This document shows positions 6,902 through 28,260 of a stretch of 28,285 nucleotides of DNA, piece after piece; position 1 is the stretch's first letter; each line of letters starts with the position of its first letter. This DNA comes from Candidatus Aminicenantes bacterium (GTDB lineage Bacteria > Acidobacteriota > Aminicenantia > Aminicenantales > Aminicenantaceae). The stretch lies in the NCBI GenBank assembly GCA_013139435.1, contig WTAW01000061.1, positions 1 to 28,285 of the forward strand. Reading direction: 5' to 3'. Position numbers and translations under genes: made by a program. The notes under the pieces are model-generated. The model saw nothing but the letters and a program-made list of their open reading frames with translations. It was not told where the DNA came from and searched no databases.

Positions 6902-8417
6902 TTCGCCTCTTTATGACGGCAAGAATAAGGAAAAAGACCGTCAAAGTCAAGCTGATATAGGGTAAAACATCACCGTGTTTTGTGTAAATTGTGTTTGGGT
7001 GCAGGGGAGTGATGGTGTCGTACAAAAACGTCCGAGTCATCAATTCAGATCGAGAGAGGATCCTCCCATAGGGATCGATGATACCGCTGACACCTGTTGT
7101 AGCCGCTCTGAGAAGATAACGCCGATTCTCCACTGCTCTGAGCACTGCCATGGCAAAATGCTGATAAGGGGCTGAGCTTCGTCCATACCAGCCATCATTG
7201 GTGATCGTGACCAGAAAGCTAGCTCCGTTTTTAGCAAATTTGCGGACAAGGTTTGGAAATATGATCTCGTAACAGATCGGGGAGCCGAATCTGATCCTTT
7301 CATGTTCATGGAGTGTAAACTGATCTCCTGGTGTGATATCGCCGATGGCGTGGGTTATGAGCGAGATGAATGCAAACACCTTTTTGTAGGGTGTGTATTC
7401 GCCGAAAGGAACGAGATGAATTTTGTGGTATTGACTTTGGGAGAGGTCTGGTTTCAGGCAGATCGCTGTGTTGTAGTATTTTGCATCTCCCCCTATCTCG
7501 GTCTTTTCGTTTGTTCCGAGAAGCAGTGTACATCCTGTGTCCTGAACAAATTGAAACAGCCTCTCCTTGAATTCCTGGTAAATACCGAGTGAGCATCCGA
7601 AACACAGCGGTACAGTAAACTCGGGCCAAATGATCAGATCGTTATTTTTCAGGCTGGCATCGAGACTCAGCTGCAAGTGTTGGTTGAAGAGGGATTCGAT
7701 CTCCTGGAAGGACAACTGTCCCCATTGTATGTCTGAAGAGACATTCCCCTGGATGACGGCTGCGGAGAAAGAATTTTCCTGAGCCGGAATATCTTTGATG
7801 CTCACAAACCCGCTCACGTGGATGAGAAAGACCAGTGCAAGAGTTGCAAAGAAGGGAGCCTTTTTGCCCGTTTTCATCGAGAGCACAAAAAGACTCTGGA
7901 AGAGCACAAGGATAAATGAGAGACCGTAGATGCCGGTTATCGAGGCCATCTGGATAAAGTAGAGATTCTTGTACTGGCCATAACCGAGAAGGCCCCACGG
8001 GAATCCCGTTAATATGTGTGTGATGATGAGCTCAAACGAGACCCACAGGAAGGGAGCGAGGAAGAAACTCAGGATAGGGAAGGACTTATGAATCTGAGTA
8101 AAGCATAGAGAAAATGCCGCCCACGTAAGTCCGAGTACACACATGAATCCCACATAGATGAGAAGGCTGATGGGGACAGAGAGGCCTCCATAATGGGAGG
8201 GAACAGCTGGGATCCAATACAGTAGTACGGCATAATACGAAAATCCGGCCATCCAACCGAGGAGGAATCCCCGTCCTGGATTTTTTTTTGAAAGTACAAG
8301 AAAAAGGGGGATGAGGGAGATCCAGGAGAAAAAAGCCAGATTAAACTTGGGAAAGGCCAGGGCCGTGATCGCGCCGCTTAATACCACCCAAAGAACATCC
8401 CTAGTTTTGATTGTCAT
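6891..8417 (-). CDS. lnt: Apolipoprotein N-acyltransferase
   Basis: Multi-TM N-terminus, TGFPW, IIWPE, YHKIHLVPFGEY, ICYE (E-K-C triad), ITNDGW, RAVEN. Start revised to ATG 8417 (MTIKTRD); overlaps the prfB start. Confidence 0.95.
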   Translation of the reverse strand: MTIKTRDVLWVVLSGAITALAFPKFNLAFFSWISLIPLFLVLSKKNPGRGFLLGWMAGFSYYAVLLYWIPAVPSHYGGLSVPISLLIYVGFMCVLGLTWAAFSLCFTQIHKSFPILSFFLAPFLWVSFELIITHILTGFPWGLLGYGQYKNLYFIQMASITGIYGLSFILVLFQSLFVLSMKTGKKAPFFATLALVFLIHVSGFVSIKDIPAQENSFSAAVIQGNVSSDIQWGQLSFQEIESLFNQHLQLSLDASLKNNDLIIWPEFTVPLCFGCSLGIYQEFKERLFQFVQDTGCTLLLGTNEKTEIGGDAKYYNTAICLKPDLSQSQYHKIHLVPFGEYTPYKKVFAFISLITHAIGDITPGDQFTLHEHERIRFGSPICYEIIFPNLVRKFAKNGASFLVTITNDGWYGRSSAPYQHFAMAVLRAVENRRYLLRAATTGVSGIIDPYGRILSRSELMTRTFLYDTITPLHPNTIYTKHGDVLPYISLTLTVFFLILAVIKRRNER

Positions 8418-8516
8418 GAATCCATCCCTTATAACTATAGCACGCGCTTTTTCTTCGGATCGCACGGCAGAAAAAGACAGGTGGTGTGGATCAAACGGAT
8501 TGAAGATACAAGCAAC

Positions 8517-9095
8517 TCAGCGGCGCCAAATAAAATAATCAGATTTTTGCTTTCCCTGAGTTTGTGCAACCTTTCCCAACTCTTCTTCAGCCTGGACCCT
8601 TGTCTCATAACCACCTACTCGAACCTTGTAGAGCGGGTTTCTTTCAGTCGGAGTCGGGTCGAAGACCTGGGTAGGAAAGCCCTGATCCTTCAATTCCTCT
8701 GCTATCGCATAGGCGGAATCCCTGTTCTTGAATGCTCCGATCTGAATGTAATAGCCGCTACTTCTTGGAATGGGGGCAGGTTTCGTTTTGGCTTCTACTT
8801 TCACTTTCTGATGGGATGCCAATTCTTCGCGAATTATGTCTTTGGGCTGTTCTGCTGGTTTCTCTGTTTCTGTCGATTTTTCCTCGGGCTCTTCAACCGG
8901 CTTTGGCTCTTCTTCGACAACACGTTCTGTTAGAGGTTCAGAAGCGAATTGGGTGGTATCCGCAATTTGAGCCTGCTTTTTACCTACGGACACACCCAGC
9001 AAAAAGATTACGACACCCAGTGCGAGAATTGCGATAAAGATCAAAACAAGTTGAGAGCTGGAGAGCTGAAGTTCTCTGTAATCTTTATTAGTCAT
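8517..9095 (-). CDS. Membrane-anchored SPOR domain protein (DedD/FtsN-like)
   Basis: Single TM segment, acidic Pro-rich linker, C-terminal YYIQIGAF...A...L...G...YKVRVGGY SPOR pattern. Confidence 0.85.
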   Translation of the reverse strand: MTNKDYRELQLSSSQLVLIFIAILALGVVIFLLGVSVGKKQAQIADTTQFASEPLTERVVEEEPKPVEEPEEKSTETEKPAEQPKDIIREELASHQKVKVEAKTKPAPIPRSSGYYIQIGAFKNRDSAYAIAEELKDQGFPTQVFDPTPTERNPLYKVRVGGYETRVQAEEELGKVAQTQGKQKSDYFIWRR

Positions 9096-9114
9096 TTTCC
9101 TGTCTTCTTAAATT

Positions 9115-9864
9115 TTACTTATTTTCTGGCATAAAAGCCTTTATCAAGTCAAGAGGGATGGGGAAAATAATCGTTGAATTTTTTTCGGTAGCCACCTCTG
9201 AAAGGGTTCCCAAAAATCTGAGTTGGAGAGCTTGAGGGTTTCCTGAGATAACATCCGCAGCCTTTCTGAGCTTGTCCGCAGCTTGAAATTCTCCCTCAGC
9301 ATGGATAACCTTGGCTCTTCTTTCTCGTTCTGCCTCTGCCTGTTTAGCGATGGCCCTGACCATATTGTCCGGTAGGTCGACGTGTTTCATTTCGACGAGT
9401 TGAACTTTGATCCCCCAAGGGTCGGTGTGTTTATCGATGATCTCTTGGAGATGCATGTTCAGTTGTTCTCTTCCTGAAAGAAGATCATCGAGCTCCACCT
9501 CACCTAAAACACTCCTGAGGGTTGTCTGGGCTAGCTGAGATGTGGCGAAAACAAAGTCTTGAACTTCCAGGACTGCATTTTGGGGCTCCATGACCCGGAA
9601 ATAGACCACGGCATTGACCTTGACCGATACGTTGTCCCTGGTGATGACATCCTGAGGCGGGATGTCCATGACCACGATCCGCAGACTGACTCTGACCATC
9701 CGGTCGATCGGGGGGAACACAAAGATCAGACCTGGCCCTTTAGGTTTGCTCAACACACGTCCAAGCCGGAAGATCACGCCTCTTTCATATTCTCTCAGGA
9801 TTTTGATCGAATTCAGGAGATAGAGCACGATAAGGGCGACGGCGATTACTGGAAAAGTTAACAT
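9115..9864 (-). CDS. SPFH/stomatin-like (slipin) family protein
   Basis: [62 protein letters not shown]; adjacent to nfeD. Confidence 0.93.
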
Positions 9865-9878
9865 TTTTGCCTCCTCAT

Positions 9879-9915
9879 AGGGGATCTTAGGAATTTTTTT
9901 AACTCCTAATCCCCT
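9879..9915. other. Intergenic hairpin between nfeD and the SPFH RBS
   Basis: AGGGGAT-CT-TAGGA-like arm pairs with TCCTAATCCCCT (bulged stem); lies just upstream of the GAGGAGG RBS on the minus strand. Confidence 0.4.
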
Positions 9916-9987
9916 TAGTTATTTCAAATTTATTTGTTCTTGCTTGTGTTTATACCATAAGACTGGATAAAGAGCTATCAGAAATGT

Positions 9988-11265
9988 CTACACTTTAGTG
10001 ACGTTGATTTTTAAATTCTCGAGGACCTCACTGACCTTCACTTTTGCCCCCTGCGGGATGTCTTGCTGGGCTTCTGCGTTCCAGATCTCCCCATGGACAA
10101 AGACCTTGCCTTCTGGATTGAGGTCGGTCCGGGCCACTCCGATTTTACCGACGAGACCTTCTTTACCCGTGAGGGCTTTTCTCATATGGACGCGTACGGC
10201 CAGTATGATCAGAAAGAGAAAGATCAGAGAAAGACCGAGGGCAACAGGGATGATGAACATAAGACTCGGGCGTAATTCAGGGATGGGAGCGTCGATGAGC
10301 ATGATAGATCCTATGACCATTGCCAATACTCCTCCTACAGATAAGATGCCATAGCTTTGAATTTTAAGCTCTAGGATAAACAGGCCTATGGAAAGCAGGA
10401 TTAAGATCAAACCCACATAATTGATGGGCAGAATCTGGAATGAAAAGATGGCAACAAGAAGGCATAATCCCCCGAGCACACCGGGAAGAATCGCTCCAGG
10501 ATTCGAGAACTCAAAATATAGTCCCAATAATCCAAGCATGAGAAGGATGTACGCCAGGTTCGGGTTTGAAATGGTCAGGAGGAACTTTTGTCTGGCTGTC
10601 ATGGGCAAGTCGACGATCTCTTCGTCTTGGAGATCCAAAATTATCTCTTCCCCATCGAATTTTTGAATCGTCTTGTTGTGGAAAAAATCGATGATCTCCT
10701 GTTCGTCCTTCGCGATCAAGTCGATAAGGCCCCCCTCTAATGCTTCTTTTTCTGTGTAGGAGAGACTTTCCCGGACAGCATCTTCGGCCATCTTTGCGTT
10801 CCGGCCTCTTTTTTCCGATATAGATTTGATGTATGAAGCCGCATCATGTGTGACCTTATCGGCCATGGTCTCGTCCATCTGCTGTCCAGTGATCGAAATG
10901 CCCACAGGATGGGCTGCACCCGTGTTGGTCCCTGGGGCCATAACAAAGAGATCACAGGCAACGCCTATAAAGAATCCTGCAGATGCAGCGCGAGCACCAC
11001 TGGGACTCACAAAGGCCACAACTGGGGTTTTGGTGCTCAGGATCTTTTCGATGATCTCTCTCATCGATGTGTCCAGACCGCCCGGTGTGTTGAGTGAGAT
11101 AATGATGAGGCTGGCATTCTCCCTGTCCGCTTTTTCGAGGGATTTCAAGATGTATTCTGAGGTGATGGGATGAATGGGAGCATTGACTGTGATTTTGATG
11201 ATAGATCCGTAGCCCAGAGTCGTCAGACACAGAATGAGAAGGACGGGGAAGAAGTATCTTTTCAC
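9988..11265 (-). CDS. nfeD: NfeD family membrane-bound ClpP-class serine protease (long form)
   Basis: LNTPGGL, RAASAG (Ser), GAAHPV, TM region with FEFSNPG, C-terminal OB fold GKVFVHGEIWNA. Start revised to GTG 11265 because the track's TTG at 11298 lies in a -35 box. Confidence 0.9.
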   Translation of the reverse strand: MKRYFFPVLLILCLTTLGYGSIIKITVNAPIHPITSEYILKSLEKADRENASLIIISLNTPGGLDTSMREIIEKILSTKTPVVAFVSPSGARAASAGFFIGVACDLFVMAPGTNTGAAHPVGISITGQQMDETMADKVTHDAASYIKSISEKRGRNAKMAEDAVRESLSYTEKEALEGGLIDLIAKDEQEIIDFFHNKTIQKFDGEEIILDLQDEEIVDLPMTARQKFLLTISNPNLAYILLMLGLLGLYFEFSNPGAILPGVLGGLCLLVAIFSFQILPINYVGLILILLSIGLFILELKIQSYGILSVGGVLAMVIGSIMLIDAPIPELRPSLMFIIPVALGLSLIFLFLIILAVRVHMRKALTGKEGLVGKIGVARTDLNPEGKVFVHGEIWNAEAQQDIPQGAKVKVSEVLENLKINVTKV

Positions 11266-11274
11266 CTTGATTTC

Positions 11275-11303
11275 ATTATAAATAGGCGCTCTGGCCAAGT
11301 CAA
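11275..11303 (-). promoter_or_regulatory. Near-consensus sigma70 promoter for nfeD
   Basis: TTGACT (11303-11298), 17 nt, TATAAT (11280-11275). Confidence 0.75.
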
Positions 11304-11376
11304 TGCTTTATATTGGAAATGCTCACCGTTTTCGATTATATCTTGAATGCGAGTATGGCATGGATTAGAATAAAAA

Positions 11377-13512
11377 TTGGCGATGAAAAGAAATGCGTGT
11401 TTAGTTTTTTTTCTCATAGTCTCTTTCTATGTGTTCAACCTTCATGCTGTGGATTCTGCTCCGTCCCTGGGAAAGAAAATCCAAGAGGCCGAGGAACATG
11501 ATGTGACTGTAACCCTTAAGCTCATCCAGGTTTATGTCACTGATAAGAAGGGGAATCCAGTAATGGATTTGGAAAAGGACGATTTTGAGCTCTATGACAA
11601 AGGCAAGTTAAAGACGATCACAGACTTTGAAAAACATGTCCTGACTGTGCCTGTTTTCGAGGCAACTAAAGAAGAAAAAAAAGATGAAACTGTACCTCTG
11701 GCAGATACTACTAAGTTGAATCGAAAGTTTTTTCTATTTTTTGATTTTGCGTTTAATACGACTCGCGGAGTCTTGGACTCAAAAAAGGCGGCCTTACATT
11801 TTATTGATGAGTATCTCCAGCCCACAGATGAAGTGGGACTCCTCTCTTTTTCTGCGGGGGAAGGCCTAGTCCTTCACGAAATTCTCACAACAGATCACCA
11901 TAAAGTCCGGGAAGTGGTTGAAGGTTTTGGGATAAAGAAGATCTTAGGCCGAGCTGAAAATTTGGAGAGGCAATACTGGCGACAAGTCATGGAACTGGAT
12001 GAGTTGAGAAAACAAGGCGCTGATCCGTTTGAAATGGCGATAAAGGAGCAGGAGAAGGAAGTCCTGGAAACTGCAAGGATCGAATTTCAATTCCAAATCT
12101 CGTCCTTTATAAAAACTGTCAAAGATCTGGCAAAAGCTTTGCGCTATCTTCCAGGGTACAAGCACATTATTCTGTTCTCTTCGGGGATTCCAAGGGTGGT
12201 GTTTGAGGGGACTCTTGTGAATACAACGGAAGTAAGGCAAAGAGATCGGTTTGAAGCTGGGACGTGGGGGAATTGGAAATTGCGCACAGATTATGAAAAC
12301 ATGAATAAAGAACTCGCCACTTCTAGCTGTGCGGTGCATACAGTGTATTCAGCGGGGAATCTACCCGGCCTCAATGAGGATATCGAAACCGATTATGCTG
12401 TCAAAGATGGCGGTATGATCAATGGACAATTATCAGGGATCGCTCCTTTGCAGTGGATATCTGAAGCCTCAGGGGGAAAACATTTCGGAAATATAAAGAA
12501 TTATGATTCGATCATGAAAGAGATCCAAAGCTTTACTGGTTCTTATTATGTTTTAGGCTATTATATAGACGAAAAATGGGATGGCAAGTACCGCAAACTC
12601 AAAGTCAAAGTTAAACGTAAGGGTTGTGAAGTGTTTGCTCAAGAAGGATATTTTAACCCGAAACCATTCTCCAAATACTCCAAACTCGAAAAACAGTGGC
12701 ACTTTTTAGAATTAGCTCTGATCGAGAATCCCAGGTTTCAGACGCCTCTTTCTTTGCCTTCCAATGCTCTTTCTTGTGAAGTTGATGGATTTCCATGTTT
12801 TCTCATGCTCTCAATAATACCCGCAGGGAATTTCGATGAGATCTTTGGTGAGAAAGTCGAGATCGTCAATCTGATCTTTAATGATCAGAACGATGTCGTC
12901 AGTTTAAAAAGAGTGGAAGTGGATTTGTCCAAATACCAGAAGGGCGATGTATACAATTACAGCGTTTCATATCTTCCCCCGGGGAAATACAGAGGCCGTG
13001 CTGTCATAAGAAATCTGGATACAGGGAAGGCAGCAATCGCTTCATCCGAAGCTATCATTCCAAACGATTTGGAGGAAGGGATCCGGTTGTATCCACCCCT
13101 ATTGATTATCCCTAAAACAAATTCAATTTATATCAATACCAGAGGTATTAAGAAAGAAGTGGGAGAGAAGGAATATTCCGCATTGTCAAGCATCTATCCC
13201 TTTGATGCTTTGAAATATTCACCCCTTGTGGGAGAACTCGAGAGAGGCATCCCTGAGCTTCTTGTGCTCGCTCGTGGTTATGTTTTAGACATGCCAGAGG
13301 GTGTTGTCAAGTTTTATACTCGACTTGTTTATGAACCAACTTGGGAAGAAGTTCCTATCCGTATCACCGTTAGAAAAACTGGGGGAGTATTCACATTCAC
13401 TGTTCCCACGGGTGATCTGCTTCCTGGGAGATATTATTTGTATCTGTTTGCTGAAGAGCAGGACACACATGCAAGAGCAAATGTGAATACAACATTTATG
13501 GTCAAACAATAA
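11377..13512 (+). CDS. Secreted VWA-domain protein, acidobacterial type
   Basis: Signal peptide; VYVTDKKGNPVMDLEKDDFELYD; FFLFFD; AALHFID; KHIILFSSG; SGGKHF; SYYVLGYY...YRKLKVKV; C-terminal beta-rich domains. Start may be ATG 11383. Confidence 0.8.
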   Translation: MAMKRNACLVFFLIVSFYVFNLHAVDSAPSLGKKIQEAEEHDVTVTLKLIQVYVTDKKGNPVMDLEKDDFELYDKGKLKTITDFEKHVLTVPVFEATKEEKKDETVPLADTTKLNRKFFLFFDFAFNTTRGVLDSKKAALHFIDEYLQPTDEVGLLSFSAGEGLVLHEILTTDHHKVREVVEGFGIKKILGRAENLERQYWRQVMELDELRKQGADPFEMAIKEQEKEVLETARIEFQFQISSFIKTVKDLAKALRYLPGYKHIILFSSGIPRVVFEGTLVNTTEVRQRDRFEAGTWGNWKLRTDYENMNKELATSSCAVHTVYSAGNLPGLNEDIETDYAVKDGGMINGQLSGIAPLQWISEASGGKHFGNIKNYDSIMKEIQSFTGSYYVLGYYIDEKWDGKYRKLKVKVKRKGCEVFAQEGYFNPKPFSKYSKLEKQWHFLELALIENPRFQTPLSLPSNALSCEVDGFPCFLMLSIIPAGNFDEIFGEKVEIVNLIFNDQNDVVSLKRVEVDLSKYQKGDVYNYSVSYLPPGKYRGRAVIRNLDTGKAAIASSEAIIPNDLEEGIRLYPPLLIIPKTNSIYINTRGIKKEVGEKEYSALSSIYPFDALKYSPLVGELERGIPELLVLARGYVLDMPEGVVKFYTRLVYEPTWEEVPIRITVRKTGGVFTFTVPTGDLLPGRYYLYLFAEEQDTHARANVNTTFMVKQ

Positions 13513-13617: not shown

Positions 13618-14295
13618 TCAATCTTTCTTTCTGTTATGCTTAAGGAATTGTAGTCCTTTACTCGATATAAAATAGCAAATTTCTCCAAATTCACCACATT
13701 CAGTCTCTTCAATAAAACCTAAATGTTCAAGTTCATTAAGAATAATTTGCAGGTCTGACATTTCCTTTATAAATTTTTGAATGTACAAAGCCTCTATATT
13801 ACTTAATTTTTCAGTTTTATTTGAAATATTAGCTAGAATTTCTAGAATAAAGAGCACTTCTTCTTTTGGTTCCAAATTTTTTAGCGATATCTTTAAGTGA
13901 CTCAATACTTCATTTTCACTTCTTAATGTTTCATTAATTTTAATAATGCGATTTGTTTTATCCCTAAGCTCATCTAGAAGCTTTATGAATCTTTTGTTAT
14001 CAGCAAGGATTTCTTTAATATTTTTGTCAGATAGTTCATTTTTTAATTGGTCTGCTAATTTTTTGTTCTTTTCATTTAAGGAGTAGACTAGGATAAAGAG
14101 TATAAGAATCAAAGTTAACAAACCTATCTCAACTTGAAATAGGAAATCAGCTATTTTTTTTGTTGATTCCCAAAGATTTAGGTTAGATGTAACAGATTTT
14201 ATAATAGCACTTACTAAACATACTCCAATTACTCCAAAAAACCACTTAGACAAATTTATTATTTTGTTTTTTGTTTCTTTTTCCTGAGTTTCCAT
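13618..14295 (-). CDS. Hypothetical membrane protein (2 TM, coiled coil, possible winged-helix C-terminus)
   Basis: 225-aa ORF, very AT-rich, with AAGGGT RBS. Two hydrophobic segments, heptad-rich middle, C-terminal LNELEHLGFI...YFISSKG..FL. Confidence 0.7.
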   Translation of the reverse strand: METQEKETKNKIINLSKWFFGVIGVCLVSAIIKSVTSNLNLWESTKKIADFLFQVEIGLLTLILILFILVYSLNEKNKKLADQLKNELSDKNIKEILADNKRFIKLLDELRDKTNRIIKINETLRSENEVLSHLKISLKNLEPKEEVLFILEILANISNKTEKLSNIEALYIQKFIKEMSDLQIILNELEHLGFIEETECGEFGEICYFISSKGLQFLKHNRKKD

Positions 14296-14456: not shown

Positions 14457-15026
14457 ATGGAAGAGGTAAGGTTTCCCCTGGCAGTATGTTGGTTTCCACA
14501 GAAGACGCTAAAAAACTCTGTATTATATCCGTAGAAACAGAACATTGCTCAAACAGCAAACATCAAAGTACCAGAAAGTTTCAGGGAAAGACTGGAAATA
14601 TTAGGATTTGCTTGAGTGCAGGTGGTACTTGAAGAGAAGCTAGTTGATCTTGAAGTTGAAGAGGAGATGTGGAATGAGAATGTTGAAAAGATGATTGATG
14701 TGGTAGACAGCTTAAAAGACTTTGAAAAGAAATTTAAAAAAGCTAATGACAAAACTAGAAAGCTCATGATAAAGTTGATGACAAAGAAAATCATAGCTAA
14801 TTTTTACAAGGGAGACCTACCTAAAAAGGTTTTACCACAACATAACAGAATGCAATTGCATTTTGTTTGGTGTGATGAATTTCAAATACTTTTTGATGTT
14901 GGAATAGTGAAAAAAACTGAAGAATGGAACAATACCCAAAAGAAAAAATACACACTCACAAAACCAAAAAAGACTAAATTATCTAGCGAAAAAGCAGAGC
15001 TTGACTTTTTATTTTCAATAAGTTAA
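14457..15026 (+). pseudogene. Interrupted ORF, possibly a C-terminal remnant of a large serine recombinase
   Basis: One frame from ATG 14457 is broken by in-frame TAG (14532) and TGA (14613), then runs into the track's 136-aa ORF. The coiled-coil segment followed by FEKKFKKANDKTRKLMIKLMTKKII resembles recombinase C-termini by eye only. Confidence 0.35.
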
Positions 15027-15416: not shown

Positions 15417-16370
15417 ATGACTAAATACAAGATTAAACCCCTTGCCCCAGATAAAGTGAAAACCTATTCCCTCAAGTCGAGAAAGAGCAAGGTCGATACC
15501 CACACATTTGCCAAAGTTCTTTCCGGGGATGAAACGATTGCTACCTTCATTGATAGCTTTCCCGATATTTTAGCCGGAAAGGATTTTAAAAGCTTCATAA
15601 AGAGAGCAAAAAAAGCAAAAGAAGGGAATAAACCCATTATCTTTGCCCTGGGCGCACATGTGATAAAGGTGGGTCTGAATCCTCTGATCATCGATCTGAT
15701 GAAATCGGGGTGGATAAGCGCTCTGGCTCTCAACGGAGCTGGAATCATACATGACTTTGAAATCGCATTTGCAGGACATACCTCCGAGGATGTGGCCGCC
15801 CAGATCAAGGACGGGCAGTTTGGAATGGCCAGGGAGACAGGAGAGCACTTAAACAAAGCGATAGCTAAGGGATCGAAGAAAAATTTGGGATTGGGTGAGG
15901 CCGTCGGAGCGATGATCTCTTCCTCCGATTTTCCTCATAAAGACCTCAGCCTTTTGTCTTGTGCTTATGACCTCAACATTCCTGTGACCGTTCATGTCGC
16001 TCTAGGAACGGATATCATCCATTTTCACCCCGACGTCAACGGGGCCGCTATCGGTAAAATTTCCCTCAATGATTTTTTTCTGTTTTGTTCCCTTGTTGAA
16101 AGATTGAATGGGGGAGGGGTGTATGTGAATGTCGGGTCCGCAGTCGTTTTGCCCGAAGTCTTCCTCAAGGCCGTGTCTTTCGTCAGGAACAGGGGCAGTG
16201 TTCTTAAAAACTTTTCCACGGCTGTTTTTGATTTTAATCTCCATTACCGTCCCTACGAAAATGTTGTACGAAGACCTTTGATGAATAAGAAGGACGGATT
16301 TTACTTCATCGGACACCATGAGATTATGATCCCACTCCTTGCCGCTTCCTTAAAATCAACTTCCATATAG
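15417..16370 (+). CDS. Conserved hypothetical protein, GSU2086-like (deoxyhypusine synthase-like fold)
   Basis: LGAHVIKVGL, NGAGIIHDFEIA..G.TSEDV, HVALGTDIIH.HP, GSAVVLPEVFLKA. Start revised to ATG 15417 (GGAGG 7 nt upstream). Confidence 0.65.
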   Translation: MTKYKIKPLAPDKVKTYSLKSRKSKVDTHTFAKVLSGDETIATFIDSFPDILAGKDFKSFIKRAKKAKEGNKPIIFALGAHVIKVGLNPLIIDLMKSGWISALALNGAGIIHDFEIAFAGHTSEDVAAQIKDGQFGMARETGEHLNKAIAKGSKKNLGLGEAVGAMISSSDFPHKDLSLLSCAYDLNIPVTVHVALGTDIIHFHPDVNGAAIGKISLNDFFLFCSLVERLNGGGVYVNVGSAVVLPEVFLKAVSFVRNRGSVLKNFSTAVFDFNLHYRPYENVVRRPLMNKKDGFYFIGHHEIMIPLLAASLKSTSI

Positions 16371-16976
16371 GAGTTGATAATCCATCATAAGATTTCGGAA
16401 GACGATCTCTGTCTGCTCTATCGTGTTTTGGATTCTTCCAGAAGTGTCGATGCGGTAATCGGCGAACTGGGCCTTTTTCTCTGGGTCCATCTGACTTTGG
16501 AATTTTTTTAGTGCGTCTTTGTGACTGATTTGATCGCGCTCCATCAAACGCGTTATTTGTATCTCTTTTTTGCAAAACGCGATGATGATCCTATCAAAAA
16601 AATCGGCAAAACCCGCCTCGATCGTCAGGGCCGCTTCGGATACAAATATCTTATAATCGCCCTCTTTCCTAAGTGTATAGATGATTTCCTTTTTCTTTTC
16701 GAATACGAGGGGATGAATGATGTTATTGAGGAATAGCCGTTCTTTGTCATCAGAAAATACGAGCTCCCCCAATTTCGAACGGTTGATCGTCCTGTCGGGA
16801 TTGAGGATTTCTTGTCCAAAATGGGCAACGACCGCTTCCCATGCAGGGTTCTCGGGATCCATGAACTCGCGAGCGACGAGATCAGCATGGTGAATGTAAC
16901 ACCCTAGCTCTTCAAGGACTTCTGCAATTACACTCTTACCCGAAGCAATTCCCCCTGTTAGAGCGACAGTGAGCAT
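16356..16976 (-). CDS. coaE: Dephospho-CoA kinase
   Basis: VALTGGIASGKS P-loop, AD..AR, INRSKLGELVF, IIHP, RLMERD, QMD, IDTSG. Confidence 0.95.
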   Translation of the reverse strand: MLTVALTGGIASGKSVIAEVLEELGCYIHHADLVAREFMDPENPAWEAVVAHFGQEILNPDRTINRSKLGELVFSDDKERLFLNNIIHPLVFEKKKEIIYTLRKEGDYKIFVSEAALTIEAGFADFFDRIIIAFCKKEIQITRLMERDQISHKDALKKFQSQMDPEKKAQFADYRIDTSGRIQNTIEQTEIVFRNLMMDYQLLYGS

Positions 16977-17024: not shown

Positions 17025-17426
17025 CTATTTCTTTTCGTCCTCAAACTGGAAGTCTTCATCAAAACTGAGGGCGATACCCTGCTTTTTCCCCTCCTTGTCG
17101 AGCTTTTGGAGCCGGACTGTGAGCCCACCAAGACGGAGCTTGGTTTTTTCCCCTCCTGTGACTTTGCTGGGAATTTCAACCACAAGATTAAGCTTGGAGC
17201 CAACGGTAATACCAGATTCCAGAGAAAAGTAGGCCCCCCCGGAGCTTATGTTTTCGAGTATTGTCTCTTCCTTAAATTTTGATCCTTGTGGGAGAGTCCC
17301 CTCAACGATGGCTGACAGAGGAAGTTCAAAACGCCATTCTTGGCGTCGGTCGGCATTTCGGTCTATACGAGGAAGGATGGTTTTTGATTTTTTTTCATCG
17401 TTTGATTTTTTTGATTCTTTTTTCAT
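17025..17426 (-). CDS. Single-domain PilZ protein with intact c-di-GMP motifs (PilZ-1)
   Basis: RQEWR (RxxxR) and NISSGG (D/NxSxxG). Start revised to ATG 17426 (GAGGA RBS), which removes the overlap with the LuxR gene. Confidence 0.85.
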   Translation of the reverse strand: MKKESKKSNDEKKSKTILPRIDRNADRRQEWRFELPLSAIVEGTLPQGSKFKEETILENISSGGAYFSLESGITVGSKLNLVVEIPSKVTGGEKTKLRLGGLTVRLQKLDKEGKKQGIALSFDEDFQFEDEKK

Positions 17427-17448
17427 TGTTCCTCTACTCCCCAATGGT

Positions 17449-18138
17449 TTAAAAGAGTGCAGAATTAATAGCGTATAGTGCCAACTGAAGACGGCTGTGT
17501 GTGTCAAGTTTTGCATAAATACTTTTGATGTGGGATCTTACAGTGTTCTTGCTGATAAACATTGCTGAGGCGATCTCATCATTGCTTTTGCCCTGGCCGA
17601 TGAGTCTAAGAACCTGAAATTCAGTGGGAGTGAGCTGGTCGAGTGTTTTTTCTTTGAGATCACGTCCTACCACAGAAATGATTCGGTCCATTATGCTGCT
17701 CATCTTATCTCTTGGCAACCATATTTCGTCCTTGTTGATGATCCGGATGGCTTCGGGAAGTTGGTTGGCTGGGTCGTTCAGGTCGAAGTACCCTCGTACG
17801 CCCACATTCATGAGGCTCACGACCTCTTCATGAGAAGGGATGTTTCCCAGGAGCATAAGCTGTGATTTCTTGTCGTCTTCTGAAATATCCCTGATGGCTT
17901 TGCAGATCTCTCGGATATTGGGTAATGGTTCAGAATTTGCAAAAAGGACGATGTTTGGGCGGAGTGTTTTTATGGATTCCAAAAACGACTCGATCGTGCT
18001 TTTTTCAATATTCACAACTTCCAGTTCTTTATCCGCATCGATCGCTTTTAAAATTCCCGAGAGTATCAGGTCAGAAATGCAATAGATCAGAACACTGATT
18101 TTTTTAGAATCTGATGCTTGAGATTTCTTATTATTCAT
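17449..18138 (-). CDS. LuxR/NarL-family regulator with atypical receiver domain (VpsT/CsgD-like)
   Basis: C-terminal HTH LTPTEFQVLRLIGQGKSNDEIA..MFISKNTVRSHIKSIYAKL. The receiver lacks the acidic pair (VLIYCI) and the phospho-Asp (IVLFAN). DEIWLPR follows. Confidence 0.9.
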   Translation of the reverse strand: MNNKKSQASDSKKISVLIYCISDLILSGILKAIDADKELEVVNIEKSTIESFLESIKTLRPNIVLFANSEPLPNIREICKAIRDISEDDKKSQLMLLGNIPSHEEVVSLMNVGVRGYFDLNDPANQLPEAIRIINKDEIWLPRDKMSSIMDRIISVVGRDLKEKTLDQLTPTEFQVLRLIGQGKSNDEIASAMFISKNTVRSHIKSIYAKLDTHSRLQLALYAINSALF

Positions 18139-18196
18139 TGCTATCTCTTCTTTTTCCCCCTTTAGACGTATTCATTCACCTTTCATTTTTGAGGAT

Positions 18197-18225
18197 ATGT
18201 TATAAGAACAAAATTTTTATGTCAA
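18197..18225 (-). promoter_or_regulatory. Sigma70-type promoter for the LuxR-PilZ1-coaE unit
   Basis: TTGACA (18225-18220), 17 nt, TAACAT (18202-18197). Confidence 0.6.
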
Positions 18226-18247
18226 GAACCTTCAGTGCCTGTTTGTA

Positions 18248-18260
18248 TGAATAGTCCAGG
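18248..18260 (+). repeat. Degenerate copy of the TGAATAATCCAGG repeat (copy A)
   Basis: TGAATAGTCCAGG, 1 mismatch to the core. Confidence 0.45.
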
Positions 18261-18325
18261 ATAGATGAGTATTGACATAATACAAATGAAGAGGGGAGAA
18301 AACGAAACAGGCCGGATCAACGGAC

Positions 18326-18700
18326 CTATGAGGTGTTTTGGATCTTATAGGATCGGTCTAAACGGATGATGACGAGCTGTTTTTTCCGACTGTCTGTCTC
18401 TGTTTGAACAAAGACAACTTCACCGGATATCAAAAGGTTGAGATGAGACTCGAGTATCAATGTTTTGGGAATCTGCAAACACAGGTTGATTCTTGTGCCG
18501 ATGGTCACTTTGACTTTGAGCCAAAAGGAGGCTTCCTGAGAGCTTATGGATGATATCTTTGTCCGTTCTTCGAATTCTTCTCCTTTAGCGTTAGCCCCTG
18601 AAACAAGTGCTGGCACTGAGAGCTCAAAGTAACGTTCCTGCTTTTGTACGGTTGTTTTATTAGGTACAGATGCCTTATCGAGAGTTCTTGTCAAGTCCAT
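18326..18700 (-). CDS. Degenerate PilZ-like protein (PilZ-2)
   Basis: Aligns by eye to PilZ-1 (FEL..PALV.G....G..F.E.T...ISS...F.L..V..G), but RxxxR becomes KQERY and NxSxxG becomes SISSQE. Confidence 0.75.
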   Translation of the reverse strand: MDLTRTLDKASVPNKTTVQKQERYFELSVPALVSGANAKGEEFEERTKISSISSQEASFWLKVKVTIGTRINLCLQIPKTLILESHLNLLISGEVVFVQTETDSRKKQLVIIRLDRSYKIQNTS

Positions 18701-18846
18701 TTCACGCCCATTGTGTCAGACATCCTATGCACAATCAATCGCTTCTAAGGATGATTTCCAGGGTGATTTTTTGTTCCCCTTTCTCATCGGAAGAGGTTAA
18801 ATCTATGGCTAATCTGAATTTTTCACAAAAATTGTCAAACACTTCC

Positions 18847-18932
18847 TAACCTGGATTATTCACGAGTTGAGTGGTAGGTCGGGTCGGTTGCTGCAGCGGT
18901 GAGGAGGTGGCCCATGAAGTTTGGGCGAGAGG
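18847..18932. repeat. Partial/decayed MITE-like copy (copy B)
   Basis: TAACCTGGATTATTCACGAGTTGAG (18847-18871) is the exact reverse complement of 21433-21457. It also shares GGTTGCTGCA-N13-GGCCCATGAAG with that element. Confidence 0.75.
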
Positions 18933-18935
18933 GTG

Positions 18936-19295
18936 TTATTTTTGCGAGTCGATAATATATTTACTCGAAAACTTGAGTGATACGCGTTGTTTTGAGCTTT
19001 TGCCTTTTAAGACTTCTACAAAGATGACTTTCCCTTTGATGACGAGCTTGAGATCCTTTCTGTCTGCTAACTTAGGTGGAAGGTCTATGATGAGTTTGAG
19101 CTCGCTTCCCAAAGCCACAGGATTTGTCAACCAAAAGGATGAGCCATGATGGCTTATATAAGATAAAACCGTCTTCTCTTTGAAGTCTTTCCCCGATTCT
19201 TCCTGGCCCTCGATCAGAGTTGGAAGAGATAGATTGAATCCCTGTTCTTTTAGGGCGGTGTTAACATTGAAATTATCTGATGATTCGTATGACAT
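18936..19295 (-). CDS. Degenerate PilZ-like protein (PilZ-3)
   Basis: FNLSLPTLIEG..ESG..FKEKT....IS..G..FWL...V..GS.L.L.I.LP aligns to PilZ-1/2; c-di-GMP motifs absent. Start revised to ATG 19295. Confidence 0.75.
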   Translation of the reverse strand: MSYESSDNFNVNTALKEQGFNLSLPTLIEGQEESGKDFKEKTVLSYISHHGSSFWLTNPVALGSELKLIIDLPPKLADRKDLKLVIKGKVIFVEVLKGKSSKQRVSLKFSSKYIIDSQK

Positions 19296-19746
19296 AAGCG
19301 CTTCCTTTTCCAATTTTTTATGCCAAAGTTAAAATGCCACAGCTCCTGTAACATGGTCAATCACCCTTTTGGATGAAATTAGGGGTGAATTTCCTTCTGT
19401 CGTTTTATCACCTCGTTTCACCCCTGGAAATGAGAAAGATATTACCCGTATCATCTTTGTGGGAAATGGATCGTTTCCTTTTGTTTCGACCGCATCAATT
19501 TTTTGTGTTTGTGCTGTGGCCTCATCAAATTTTAAGTGAACCTTCCGAAGTTCTCTATGTGATTGACTCCAAAGGATTTATGCAGGAAATCAATAATATG
19601 ACCACTATATATAGCCTATATTAGGAGTGCTGTATACAATATATTGCACTTGAAACTCTTTTAGTAACAACGATCCGTTAGATAAAAAATCACGATTTTG
19701 CCATATCACCCCTCAGTGCTGACGGGCACTTGAGATTGGCGCTTTC

Positions 19747-19805: not shown

Positions 19806-21260
19806 GTGAAAAAAGAAGATCGATTCGTTAAGCAAATTACGCCCAAAAGTGTTGATTTTTCAAAATGGTATGGTGAGATCATTCGCAAAGCTGAACTCGC
19901 AGACTATGCTCCCATGAAGGGGATGATGATCATCCGGCCTTATGGGTATGCTATTTGGGAAAATCTGAAGGCCCAATTGGATAAGAGGATCAAGGATTCG
20001 GGCCACTCTAATGCGTATTTTCCACTGTTTATACCCGAGTCTCTTCTCGCAAAAGAAACGGAACATCTTGAGGGATTCTCTCCTGAAGTAGCTTGGGTGA
20101 CTCATGGTGGCCAAGAAGAATTGGAAGAGCGTCTGGCTGTACGCCCCACTTCTGAAGCGATCATTGGCAGCATGTATTCCAAATGGATCAAGTCCTGGCG
20201 TGACTTGCCTTTGTTGATCAATCAATGGGCGAATATCGTCCGCTGGGAAAAGGTCACACGACCCTTTTTGAGGACGACTGAGTTTTTATGGCAAGAGGGC
20301 CACACCGTGCATGAGACATCAGAGGAAGCTCAGGAAGAAACACTGATGATCCTAGCGATGTATAAAGAGTTTGTGGAGTCCGAGTTGGCTATCCCAGTGA
20401 TTTCAGGGATTAAATCAGAACGCGAAAAATTCGCTGGGGCACTGGCCACCTATGCCATCGAAGCGTTGATGTCTGATGGCAAAGCCCTTCAAATGGGGAC
20501 ATCCCACAATTTGGGCCAGCACTTTTCAAAAGTTTTTAATATCCGGTATGAGGACAGGAACCAGAATATCCAGTATGCATGGCAGACATCGTGGGGCATG
20601 TCCACACGACTGATCGGAGCACTGATCATGGCTCATGGAGATGACTCTGGATTGAGATTGCCCCCTAGGATCGCTCCGATCCAGGCTGTCATTGTGCCCA
20701 TTTCCCTGGGAAACTGGAAGGATGAGGTACTCCCTGTTGCTGTGAAGATCCAGAGTGAATTGCATGAAATGGGTCTGCGCGTGGAGCTCGATCAAAGGGA
20801 GGAATTCACTCCTGGGTGGAAATTTTCCGAGTGGGAGATGAGAGGAGTTCCTATAAGGATTGAGATCGGTCCTAGAGACGTTAAAGAGAACCAGGCTATT
20901 TGTGTGAGACGTGATAGCGGCAAAAAAGAACCTGTGCCGCTTGATGCTTTAGCAGTAAAGCTACCCGAGCTCCTGTCTGATATCCAAAAATCTTTGTATG
21001 CAAAGGCCCTGGAATTTCAGATGACCAACACTCATGATATCGAGAGCTACGAGGAGTTTAAAGCCACTCTTGAGGAACAACGAGGATTTCTCAGGACGTT
21101 CTGGTGCGGTAAAACGGCATGCGAAGAAAGGATCAAGGAAGAGACTATGGCCACGATACGAGTGATTCTCCTAGAAGAGGATAAATCAATAGGTGGAGAA
21201 AGATGCATTCTGTGCGGAGAAAAATCTGAACACCTGGCCTATTTCGCCCGTGCATACTAA
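19806..21260 (+). CDS. proS: Proline--tRNA ligase (eukaryote/archaea-like type, no INS editing domain)
   Basis: FSKWY, YGYAIWE, FPLFIP, RPTSE, NQWANIVRWE, RTTEFLWQEGHT, LQMGTSHNLGQHF, PGWKFSEWE, terminal FARAY. Confidence 0.97.
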   Translation: MKKEDRFVKQITPKSVDFSKWYGEIIRKAELADYAPMKGMMIIRPYGYAIWENLKAQLDKRIKDSGHSNAYFPLFIPESLLAKETEHLEGFSPEVAWVTHGGQEELEERLAVRPTSEAIIGSMYSKWIKSWRDLPLLINQWANIVRWEKVTRPFLRTTEFLWQEGHTVHETSEEAQEETLMILAMYKEFVESELAIPVISGIKSEREKFAGALATYAIEALMSDGKALQMGTSHNLGQHFSKVFNIRYEDRNQNIQYAWQTSWGMSTRLIGALIMAHGDDSGLRLPPRIAPIQAVIVPISLGNWKDEVLPVAVKIQSELHEMGLRVELDQREEFTPGWKFSEWEMRGVPIRIEIGPRDVKENQAICVRRDSGKKEPVPLDALAVKLPELLSDIQKSLYAKALEFQMTNTHDIESYEEFKATLEEQRGFLRTFWCGKTACEERIKEETMATIRVILLEEDKSIGGERCILCGEKSEHLAYFARAY

Positions 21261-21455
21261 ATCTGAATCATTCATAAAAACTGTCGATTTCCTTATAATT
21301 AAAACTCTTAATTCTTATAATCGACATTTTTTACCCTTCGGGCGAGCTGATCTCACCGCATCTACTTCGTTGCGACCCATTCGAAGTGGACGACCACGTC
21401 TTCATGGGCCGACGCCTAGCATATGCAGCAACCTCAACTCGTGAATAATCCAGGT
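21261..21455. mobile_element. MITE-like element (copies F and C), about 195 bp
   Basis: Imperfect terminal inverted repeats ATCTGAATCATTCA...TGAATAATCCAGGT (11/14), TAA on both flanks, two internal hairpins, no coding capacity. Confidence 0.6.
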
Positions 21456-22809: not shown

Positions 22810-22954
22810 CCTGGATTATTCATAAACTATCGATTATGAGTGAAAATCGTATATGAAATGTAGCGCCTAAATGAATACTCTGAAAAAAACAATGTAACAT
22901 TCTGAAATTTGGTCTGTTAAAATGAGAATCGACATTTTTTATGAATAATTCAGG
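22810..22954. mobile_element. MITE-like element (copies D and E), 145 bp
   Basis: CCTGGATTATTCATAAA (22810-22826) and TTTATGAATAATTCAGG (22938-22954) are inverted repeats (16/17) with subterminal TCGATT/AATCGA; located between convergent genes. Confidence 0.6.
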
Positions 22955-24757: not shown

Positions 24758-25159
24758 TCACCATGTGGAGTAAAGTGTCCCATCCAGGGATGTTTCATAA
24801 GAGCCTGATCTTACATCAGATATGCCTGGCTGAACTCCAGCGACCAGATCTTCCTCGGTGAGGACTTCCATGAATTCGAACCACGAATCCGTGGTCCTGG
24901 TGATGGGATCTACGGGAATTCTAAAGAGATAGCCGTCATCGACAAGCGTCTGTAGAGAGGCAGGATATTGGCCTTTATCTAAATAGTATTGACCGATGAG
25001 TTTTCTCATCAGAAAGAGGTCCTCTTTAAGCACAGCCTCTCTAGCTCTTTTTGTGGCATTTGTGTATTGGGGTAGCCCCAATCCCACGAGAATGCCGAGC
25101 AAAGCAAAAACAATCATCATTTCGATGAGAGTGAACCCTTTTTGTCTTTGATTTTTCAT
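24758..25159 (-). CDS. GspG-like pseudopilin
   Basis: QKG|FTLIEM prepilin motif; ARE.VLKEDL..MR..I.QY..DKG.YP.SL..LV, IPVDPIT, DVRSG. Confidence 0.88.
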   Translation of the reverse strand: MKNQRQKGFTLIEMMIVFALLGILVGLGLPQYTNATKRAREAVLKEDLFLMRKLIGQYYLDKGQYPASLQTLVDDGYLFRIPVDPITRTTDSWFEFMEVLTEEDLVAGVQPGISDVRSGSYETSLDGTLYSTW

Positions 25160-25190
25160 TCTTGAATATTCCTCATCTTAATTTAAGAGT

Positions 25191-25673
25191 CTACCAATCC
25201 TTGTATTTTGTCCCATCCAGAGCTGTTCCCGGGCTTTTTGTGAAGACGTCATAAATATTTTCGCCTCCCCAGATATCTGAATCATGATCATCCTGGTAGG
25301 ATCGGAGTCCCCAATCATAGGAGTTCGTCATCGGGTCTTTGGGAATACGCCGCAAGAATTTTACGATCTTAGTGACCTCTTGGCCGTCGACTTCCATTTT
25401 GGCCTCAACCCCCTCGACCAATGTTTCCAGGTCGGGAGGATATCCTTCTGTGTCTTCGTCGAATTCGAATGCCTTTTCATCCGCAAGCTTTTTGTAGGTA
25501 TCGATGGCCTCTCTCATCATCCTCAGGTTTCTTCTGAGCGTGGTTTCCCTTTCTCTTTTGACAGCCGTTTTGGCCAATGGCAAAACAGCGAGGGCCAGAA
25601 TGGACACTATGGTAAGAGTGACCAACATTTCAACCAGAGTAAATCCCTTTTTTCTAAAGGCTGATAGAATCAT
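25191..25673 (-). CDS. GspG-like pseudopilin
   Basis: KKG|FTLVEM prepilin motif; E..LRR.LR.MR.AID.YK, GYPPDLETLV.GV, FLRRIPKDPMT, DGTKYKDW. Confidence 0.88.
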   Translation of the reverse strand: MILSAFRKKGFTLVEMLVTLTIVSILALAVLPLAKTAVKRERETTLRRNLRMMREAIDTYKKLADEKAFEFDEDTEGYPPDLETLVEGVEAKMEVDGQEVTKIVKFLRRIPKDPMTNSYDWGLRSYQDDHDSDIWGGENIYDVFTKSPGTALDGTKYKDW

Positions 25674-28246: not shown

Positions 28247-28260
28247 TGAATAATCCAGGT
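28247..28260 (+). repeat. Isolated copy of the repeat core (copy G)
   Basis: TGAATAATCCAGGT, identical to the ends at 21442-21455 and, reverse-complemented, at 18849-18862 and 22809-22822. Confidence 0.65.

Follow-up and report, generated by a model that had tools for sequence, protein, structure and literature searches.

A conserved LuxR-PilZ gene module of Aminicenantales, with a candidate 39-bp operator and a putative c-di-GMP-linked regulon

Presentation of the hypothesis

In a 28,285-nucleotide stretch of DNA from Candidatus Aminicenantes bacterium (contig WTAW01000061.1; the whole stretch is called the window below) four genes encode a LuxR/GerE-type regulator, here simply LuxR, and three small paralogous proteins of the PilZ family, here PilZ-1, PilZ-2 and PilZ-3. 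This module is specific to the order Aminicenantales and vertically inherited, and the promoters of PilZ-2 and PilZ-3 carry a 39-bp operator-like element that recurs upstream of other genes of the genome. In our opinion, the module probably switches genes for pili, polysaccharide and c-di-GMP (the cyclic dimer of guanosine monophosphate). The best overall explanation that we can offer, tentative as it is, holds that LuxR activates the genes bearing the element, that PilZ-1 senses c-di-GMP and acts in trans, and that PilZ-2 and PilZ-3 are outputs.

The need to look at such a module is easy to illustrate. Aminicenantes are abundant, uncultured bacteria of sediments whose regulation is essentially unknown, and our literature search returned no paper covering both Aminicenantes and c-di-GMP. 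A first-pass annotation of this DNA knew of no description of the arrangement. For the literature searched this holds, but in the pair TssZ-HinK (PMC10912698) a LuxR-type regulator with a PilZ adaptor is already known. The module would combine two known kinds of component, a biofilm regulator of the VpsT/BrpT/CsgD type and a PilZ adaptor on a LuxR-type regulator; what is new for this window is the shared element and its putative regulon. Together they may provide a testable picture of how Aminicenantes choose between surface-attached and free life, with a master regulator of the VpsT/CsgD/BrpT type, a candidate operator and a regulon of genes for pili, polysaccharide and c-di-GMP. What is of interest to students of c-di-GMP is that a signal-blind, proline-variant regulator may have left the sensing of this molecule to a distinct PilZ protein. 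As every part is small and soluble, testing in E. coli is feasible without culturing the organism.

Conservation and the putative regulon

LuxR is present in 40 of 41 genomes of relatives, which belong to nine families of Aminicenantales, with 66-97% identity. Wherever the flanks are reached, the 37 inspected loci of relatives keep the full order of the window, in which proS is divergent from PilZ-3, PilZ-2, LuxR, PilZ-1 and coaE; in some lineages either PilZ-2 or PilZ-3 is missing, and the gap between LuxR and PilZ-1 is 13-110 nt throughout the nine families. Conservation of the cluster in related genomes, which the first-pass annotation had left to a synteny survey, is indeed found across the order. 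Outside it no LuxR turned up, neither in other orders of the class (18 genomes) nor in the rest of the phylum (274 genomes). The family of the PilZ trio occurs in all 30 genomes searched within the order (2-3 copies each, nearly all at the LuxR locus) and in 0 of 51 genomes of sister orders. An exhaustive profile search of 1.84 billion representatives gives 443 bits for the cluster of LuxR orthologues and about 115 bits for the next full-length protein. A true loss of LuxR and the PilZ trio in the one genome without LuxR, a member of the window's family, was considered and rejected: proS and coaE are absent there too, so the locus is unassembled rather than lost. The window DNA itself recurs in metagenomes of marine sediments, cold seeps and vents (18 studies).

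A repeat search confined to the intergenic DNA of the window gave nothing convincing, and the 39-bp element emerged from the comparison of orthologous upstream regions. Its consensus is TCACCC-N6-TCAYCC-N9-GATTGAC, the 3' end of which merges into a -35-like TTGAC. The copy upstream of PilZ-3, present in 27 of 27 loci, forms an inverted repeat TCACCCC-N12-GGGTGA with a central TCATCC and abuts a -35-like TTGACC. PilZ-2 carries the element wherever the gene has its own promoter, as judged from the upstream regions of relatives, and an extended -10-like TGACACAAT follows downstream of it in the window. These two promoters hold the two best copies of the element in the genome. Lying beside the -35 box, it is well placed for an activator. 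Its right arm (GGGTGATTGA) may resemble the published CsgD box, a likeness that we do not use as evidence.

With a position weight matrix built from relatives only, the window's own genome contains 19 sites above 14 bits (16 of them above 26 bits), compared with 0 in the reversed genome that served as control, and most sites lie about 20-170 nt upstream of a start codon. Besides PilZ-2 and PilZ-3, about 17 genes are preceded by the element. They include signalling genes (a cyclase with receiver and GGDEF domains, a PAS histidine kinase, a PAS protein and an extracytoplasmic function sigma factor), pilus genes (PilC/GspF and a pilin) and genes for a TPR-CHAT protein, a ParA-like ATPase, coaD, an SLT transglycosylase and several proteins of unknown function. 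The link to c-di-GMP signalling that the first-pass annotation had drawn is thus real at the level of the regulon, where the element stands upstream of cyclase as well as PilZ genes. On the contig C216 the element at 12428-12466 heads the cyclase gene in the stretch 8126-12466. Behind this gene, and on its strand, come a histidine kinase (ATPase domain at 9918-10265) and another GGDEF gene (8126-8599); the stretch is likely a c-di-GMP-producing operon under control of the element.

Genomes of two other genera, one from the window's family and one from another family of the order, have the element too. In these it precedes orthologues of PilC, coaD and the pilin, a GGDEF protein, a PAS kinase and a receiver protein; further genes behind it encode a Wzz/GNVR protein, a flippase of the Wzx type and three PilZ proteins of canonical form. 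The last three are single-domain PilZ genes of the other family (L083:1188-1565, L084:95-502 and L085:1219-1581; 45-50 bits with Pfam), and their presence means that the PilZ content of the regulon differs between lineages. A stringent pattern of the element matches 2-15 times in each of the 30 genomes searched within the order; in sister orders there are 8 matches, spread over 7 of 51 genomes, and in the control 1. Element, LuxR and PilZ trio share one sharp taxonomic boundary. No element lies within 1.5 kb upstream of the remaining PilZ and GGDEF genes of the window's genome, which means that part of the c-di-GMP genes is outside the regulon.

There is also an apparent tie to coenzyme A synthesis. 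The coaD gene, which encodes pantetheine-phosphate adenylyltransferase (C54:4138-4701; TIGR01510, 204 bits), carries the element, as does its counterpart in another genus of the same family (L070:185-682), while coaE lies directly downstream of PilZ-1 throughout the order.

The protein components

LuxR is similar over its full length to regulators of the NarL family and has a GerE helix-turn-helix (HTH) domain (71.8 bits with Pfam), with no Pfam match to the receiver domain Response_reg. Compared with VraR and LiaR, all five active-site residues of the receiver are replaced: the acidic pair by C20 and I21, the phosphorylated aspartate by A67, the threonine by G98 and the lysine by L120. No conserved aspartate was found in these columns across the LuxR orthologues. 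To judge from its sequence, the receiver is non-phosphorylatable and LuxR is not a two-component regulator of the NarL/FixJ kind. The AlphaFold2 model (mean predicted local distance difference test, pLDDT, 79) has a (beta-alpha)5 receiver fold at residues 14-135, a long helix alpha6 at 143-162 and the HTH domain at 171-228, which is the architecture of VpsT with its extra alpha6. Among solved structures matching LuxR, VpsT ranks 13 with Foldseek and second with phmmer, where the match has E 2e-14 over residues 113-226.

The sequence W140-L-P-R143 of LuxR aligns column by column with W131-L-T-R134 of VpsT, and the invariant M150 aligns with VpsT I141 and QstR L137, the hydrophobic dimer contact of alpha6. 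Residues 139-229 are almost invariant over nine families, including E-I-W-L-P-R-D-K-M-S-S-I-M-D-R-I and the last helix. The VpsT motif that binds c-di-GMP is W[F/L/M][T/S]R, and WLPR is the proline variant found in Vibrio cholerae QstR and Vibrio vulnificus BrpT (PMC6237807). QstR functions at low c-di-GMP, dimerises without a signal and tolerates the change R130A; replacing its Pro129 by threonine gives c-di-GMP dependence, and the protein was not recovered in a screen for c-di-GMP binders (PMC6237807). BrpT is likewise reported to be c-di-GMP-independent (PMC6237807, PMC13726011). LuxR has both sequence features of this variant, WLPR and the hydrophobic contact residue in alpha6, and its proline lies outside the [T/S] of the VpsT motif. 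The closest outgroups of LuxR have W-[VIL]-[ERQS]-R, often with degenerate receivers. By analogy, LuxR is probably a phosphorylation-independent, c-di-GMP-blind regulator.

PilZ-1, PilZ-2 and PilZ-3 are paralogues (BLASTP, 29-34% pairwise identity, E 1e-17 to 1e-21). PilZ-1 is a canonical single-domain PilZ protein with a lysine-rich N-terminal tail that scores 27.7 bits with the Pfam PilZ model (PF07238), above the gathering cut-off of 22.5. Its motifs are R28-x3-R32 (nt 17331-17345) and N59-x-S61-x2-G64 (nt 17235-17252); R28, R32, S61 and G64 do not vary among 35 orthologues, and N59 is kept in at least 90% of them. In PilZ-2 the RxxxR site reads K-R-E-R-x (K28, S32) and the NxSxxG site S-I-S-S-Q-E (S59, E64), and these four residues are common to the PilZ-2 orthologues. 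The PilZ-3 orthologues lack arginine at 28 and 32 and have Y59, the second site reading Y-I-S-H-x-G. Each of the two is conserved as a separate group of orthologues. From its sequence, PilZ-1 is the one credible c-di-GMP receptor of the trio, and its binding is predicted.

The PilZ-2 and PilZ-3 proteins of the window match nothing in Pfam or NCBIfam, although 4 of 26 PilZ-3 orthologues give a weak Pfam PilZ match, so their homology was established through profile comparison and fold. Profiles of PilZ-2 or PilZ-3 orthologues align with that of PilZ-1 orthologues at a probability of 99.7% (hhalign, E about 1e-27). The AlphaFold2 model of PilZ-2 is an all-beta barrel (pLDDT 86), and its best solved matches with Foldseek are the PilZ domains of MotI/DgrA, Alg44, BcsA, PlzD and MrkH. 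According to this model PilZ-2 is a true PilZ barrel without the c-di-GMP motifs; for PilZ-3 the same fold is suggested by its 34% identity to PilZ-2.

On the sequences themselves we agree with the first-pass annotation, which had described three mutually alignable small proteins with the two motifs in PilZ-1 only, a non-phosphorylatable receiver and a WLPR motif in LuxR, and PilZ-2 and PilZ-3 as degenerate PilZ barrels. We disagree with its claim of two independent c-di-GMP readers. Since WLPR is the QstR/BrpT variant, which acts without c-di-GMP, LuxR is probably not a second reader. Of the earlier interpretation as a whole, the conservation, the one intact and two degenerate barrels and the c-di-GMP context stand, and the second reader in LuxR does not.

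Relation to known systems

LuxR shares with QstR and BrpT the identical WLPR at the start of alpha6, the GerE-type HTH domain and a hydrophobic residue in alpha6 (M150 here, L137 in QstR). An exopolysaccharide locus is under the control of BrpT, and genes for polysaccharide are among those that bear the element here. The Vibrio proteins are, however, distant relatives from another phylum, and they are not paired with a PilZ gene and degenerate paralogues as LuxR is. With VpsT of V. cholerae (PDB 3KLN/3KLO) the likeness extends to the degenerate receiver, the extra alpha6, the position of the motif, the type of HTH domain and the presumed biofilm-type regulon. VpsT has WLTR and needs c-di-GMP for dimerisation, whereas LuxR has proline at the third position, which makes direct binding of c-di-GMP by LuxR unlikely.

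Two precedents connect PilZ proteins with LuxR-type regulators. TssZ (PA0012), a single-domain PilZ protein of Pseudomonas aeruginosa, binds the LuxR-type HinK and blocks its binding to DNA, and c-di-GMP weakens the pair (PMC10912698). In both cases a canonical single-domain PilZ protein is combined with a GerE HTH regulator, and the interface predicted here is also on the HTH domain. HinK differs in being of the LasR type, with an autoinducer-binding domain and no pseudo-receiver; there are no degenerate paralogues in that system, and the binding in ours is a prediction. In mrkHI of Klebsiella pneumoniae a PilZ-domain protein and a LuxR-type regulator are encoded in one bicistronic operon controlling surface appendages (PMC3161979, PMC5344390). 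The bicistron is the common feature; MrkH, in contrast, is itself a DNA-binding activator with two PilZ-like domains, and gene order and family relations differ.

The comparison for PilZ-2 and PilZ-3 is with the PilZ protein of Xanthomonas. That protein is a degenerate PilZ adaptor that binds FimX and PilB. Like it, PilZ-2 and PilZ-3 have a PilZ fold without c-di-GMP motifs and presumably bind proteins. They are not its orthologues but recent paralogues of the canonical PilZ-1 beside them, they keep the N-terminal segment, and no partner of the FimX or PilB type is encoded near them. The earlier suggestion that PilZ-2 and PilZ-3 act on pilus ATPases found no backing in the window: its Pfam-scanned open reading frames (ORFs; six of at least 110 aa were not scanned) include no PilB or PilT.

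Weighing the explanations

The mechanism we propose is as follows. LuxR would dimerise through alpha6 independently of phosphorylation, like QstR and BrpT, and would not read c-di-GMP itself; it would activate the promoters that bear the element, a biofilm-type regulon like those of VpsT, BrpT and CsgD. PilZ-1 would be the c-di-GMP receptor and act in trans on LuxR. Without ligand it would most likely sit on the C-terminal HTH helix and hinder the binding of LuxR to DNA, and c-di-GMP would loosen the pair, as in TssZ-HinK. PilZ-2 and PilZ-3 would be c-di-GMP-blind outputs of the regulon, with LuxR itself as a possible target. It is improbable, in our opinion, that they are c-di-GMP-blind mimics of PilZ-1, induced by LuxR through its two strongest promoters, that compete with PilZ-1 for the HTH surface of LuxR; if so, they would form a paralogue-decoy feedback loop and make the c-di-GMP switch hysteretic or bistable.

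A complex prediction for LuxR and PilZ-1, with two c-di-GMP included, scores 0.51 (median of three runs), and the best of three controls scores 0.00. Of 80 solved complexes in the calibration 58 reached the mark, compared with 2 of 110 mismatched pairs, and 7 of those 80 as well as both passing mismatches lie at or below 0.60. The predicted interface joins LuxR residues 181-183 and 213-228 (the last HTH helix) to PilZ-1 residues 30-37, 60-63, 85-97 and 122-128, including part of the NxSxxG motif. The interface residues E30, F33, L35, I60, S61, P86 and L97 of PilZ-1 are identical in the three paralogues of the window; many of these may be core residues. In view of this weak support, the closeness of the two genes and the precedent of TssZ-HinK, we hold a direct interaction of PilZ-1 with LuxR to be plausible, if slightly less likely than not.

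Several points weigh against our explanation. The evidence on all four proteins is computational. According to the calibration, scores in the range of the LuxR-PilZ-1 prediction are more often wrong than right unless the pair is already likely, and the use of our own alignments and of a ligand departs from the calibration conditions. The precedent of QstR and BrpT comes from Vibrio proteins that are about 20% identical overall to LuxR, and given the W-[VIL]-[ERQS]-R of the outgroups, the W..R spacing may be structural and tell nothing about c-di-GMP either way. The connection of LuxR with the element rests on co-occurrence, adjacency and the matched invariance of HTH domain and element, which another order-specific factor could also account for. 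Since the element also precedes coaD and a ParA-like gene, biofilm is not the sole theme of the regulon. Lastly, LuxR is covered by none of the metatranscriptome contigs. As for these, an RNA-seq metatranscriptome holds a 308-nt contig on 18374-18681 (PilZ-2 coding; 2 mismatches; neighbouring genes uncovered), and contigs covering coaE/PilZ-1 and the 5' part of PilZ-3 come from two libraries filed as metatranscriptomic, for one of which the RNA origin is a guess. The contigs are silent on transcript ends, levels and operon structure and are a mere hint of PilZ expression in situ.

Could LuxR be a receptor of the VpsT type after all, dimerising on c-di-GMP through WLPR, so that the module has two independent readers and two adaptors? 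The motif aligns exactly with WLTR of VpsT in a similar context (DE[IM]WL.R), its invariant W140 and R143 correspond to c-di-GMP-contacting residues of VpsT, alpha6 is predicted and the receiver is degenerate as in VpsT. The proline at the third position speaks against it, as do QstR and BrpT, which have the identical WLPR and act independently of c-di-GMP, the former not having been recovered in the screen for binders; in the outgroups, moreover, other residues fill the W-x-x-R, and these proteins are not known to bind c-di-GMP. We consider both this reading and direct binding of c-di-GMP by LuxR very unlikely. A different objection is that LuxR and the PilZ proteins are conserved neighbours without contact, where the PilZ proteins act on pilus, secretion or polysaccharide machines and LuxR only controls expression. 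Most characterised single-domain PilZ proteins have non-transcriptional targets. PilC, pilins and polysaccharide genes of the regulon are possible targets of this kind, PilZ-2 and PilZ-3 have their own element-bearing promoters, and the complex prediction supports contact weakly. Yet the spacing of LuxR and PilZ-1 is kept at 13-110 nt over nine families, the trio family is nearly confined to the LuxR locus and all three controls of the complex prediction are at zero, and we regard the absence of contact as unlikely.

The element could also be bound by another factor, or be a promoter module that has spread, with LuxR regulating other genes; the promoter of LuxR itself is indeed without the element. 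But LuxR and the element end at the same taxonomic boundary, the two best copies adjoin the LuxR gene, and the element is not flanked by TGAATAATCCAGG, a 13-mer repeated in this genome. The downstream genes are functionally coherent, and some of them (PilC, coaD, the pilin and a GGDEF protein) keep the element in other families, for which reason a regulon fits better than random spread. Binding by another factor seems to us rather unlikely; we lean, judging from these sequence comparisons, towards LuxR as the protein that binds the element.

Features of the locus

The coordinates are collected in Table 1. As the first-pass annotation had it, the four genes are co-oriented. LuxR and PilZ-1 are one bicistron, and PilZ-2 and PilZ-3 have a promoter each. 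PilZ-3 has an alternative start, a TTG at 19313 that would add 6 aa.

Table 1. Genes and regulatory features of the module and its flanks (positions in the window)
Feature	Position	Strand	Remarks
coaE	16356-16976	minus	flank downstream of PilZ-1
PilZ-1	17025-17426	minus	133 aa; start 22 nt past the end of LuxR
LuxR (LuxR/GerE-type regulator)	17449-18138	minus	229 aa
WLPR codons of LuxR (W140-L141-P142-R143)	17710-17721	minus	invariant in 32 orthologues
Promoter of the LuxR-PilZ-1 bicistron, sigma-70-like TTGACA-17-TAACAT	18197-18225	minus	strong; conserved in much of the order
PilZ-2	18326-18700	minus	124 aa
39-bp element upstream of PilZ-2	18731-18769	minus	46.7 bits; abuts -35-like TTGATT
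PilZ-3	18936-19295	minus	119 aa from ATG at 19295, the start used by orthologues
39-bp element upstream of PilZ-3	19353-19391	minus	54.5 bits; best copy of the genome
proS	19806-21260	plus	divergent flank on the PilZ-3 side

The PilZ-2 promoter (window 18700-18740, minus strand) reads TTGATT-17-(TG)ACACAAT, with a predicted start of transcription a few nucleotides before the ATG. No Shine-Dalgarno sequence is visible, and an RNA-library contig stops at 18703; the mRNA from which PilZ-2 is translated may be nearly leaderless.

The neighbourhood is one of housekeeping genes (HU, PCMT, LpxB, PNPase, a release factor, Lnt, RibF and MazG). Domain searches of the window gave no match to GGDEF, EAL or the histidine kinase ATPase domain, in line with the earlier statement that it has no such genes. 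The genome, a metagenome-assembled one of 2.6 Mb and 83% completeness, has 8 GGDEF and 5 PilZ matches outside the window. An EAL domain was found nowhere in this 83% complete assembly despite the GGDEF matches; c-di-GMP may be broken down by HD-GYP proteins or by the products of unassembled genes.

The 13-mer TGAATAATCCAGG has 6 copies in the window at up to 1 mismatch (0.05 expected), namely 18248-18260 (plus), 18850-18862 (minus), 21442-21454, 22810-22822, 22942-22954 and 28247-28259. The whole genome contains it 102 times without mismatch, the reversed control not once. Immediately 3' of PilZ-2 and of PilZ-3, two of the copies fill up the long gaps between the genes. It has the look of an intergenic repeat of the repetitive extragenic palindromic (REP) or miniature inverted-repeat transposable element (MITE) type, unrelated to the 39-bp element.

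At 24758-25673 (minus strand) two adjacent small proteins have an N-terminal methylation (prepilin) motif; their neighbours are an unannotated ORF of 228 aa and lpxB, and no 39-bp element was found upstream of the pair. Between 13001 and 15000 the GC content is 0.33-0.35, compared with about 0.45 elsewhere. The ORFs at 13618-14295 and 14616-15026 have no Pfam match, and neither has an ORF of 711 aa at 11377-13512 that adjoins this stretch, which may be an acquired island.

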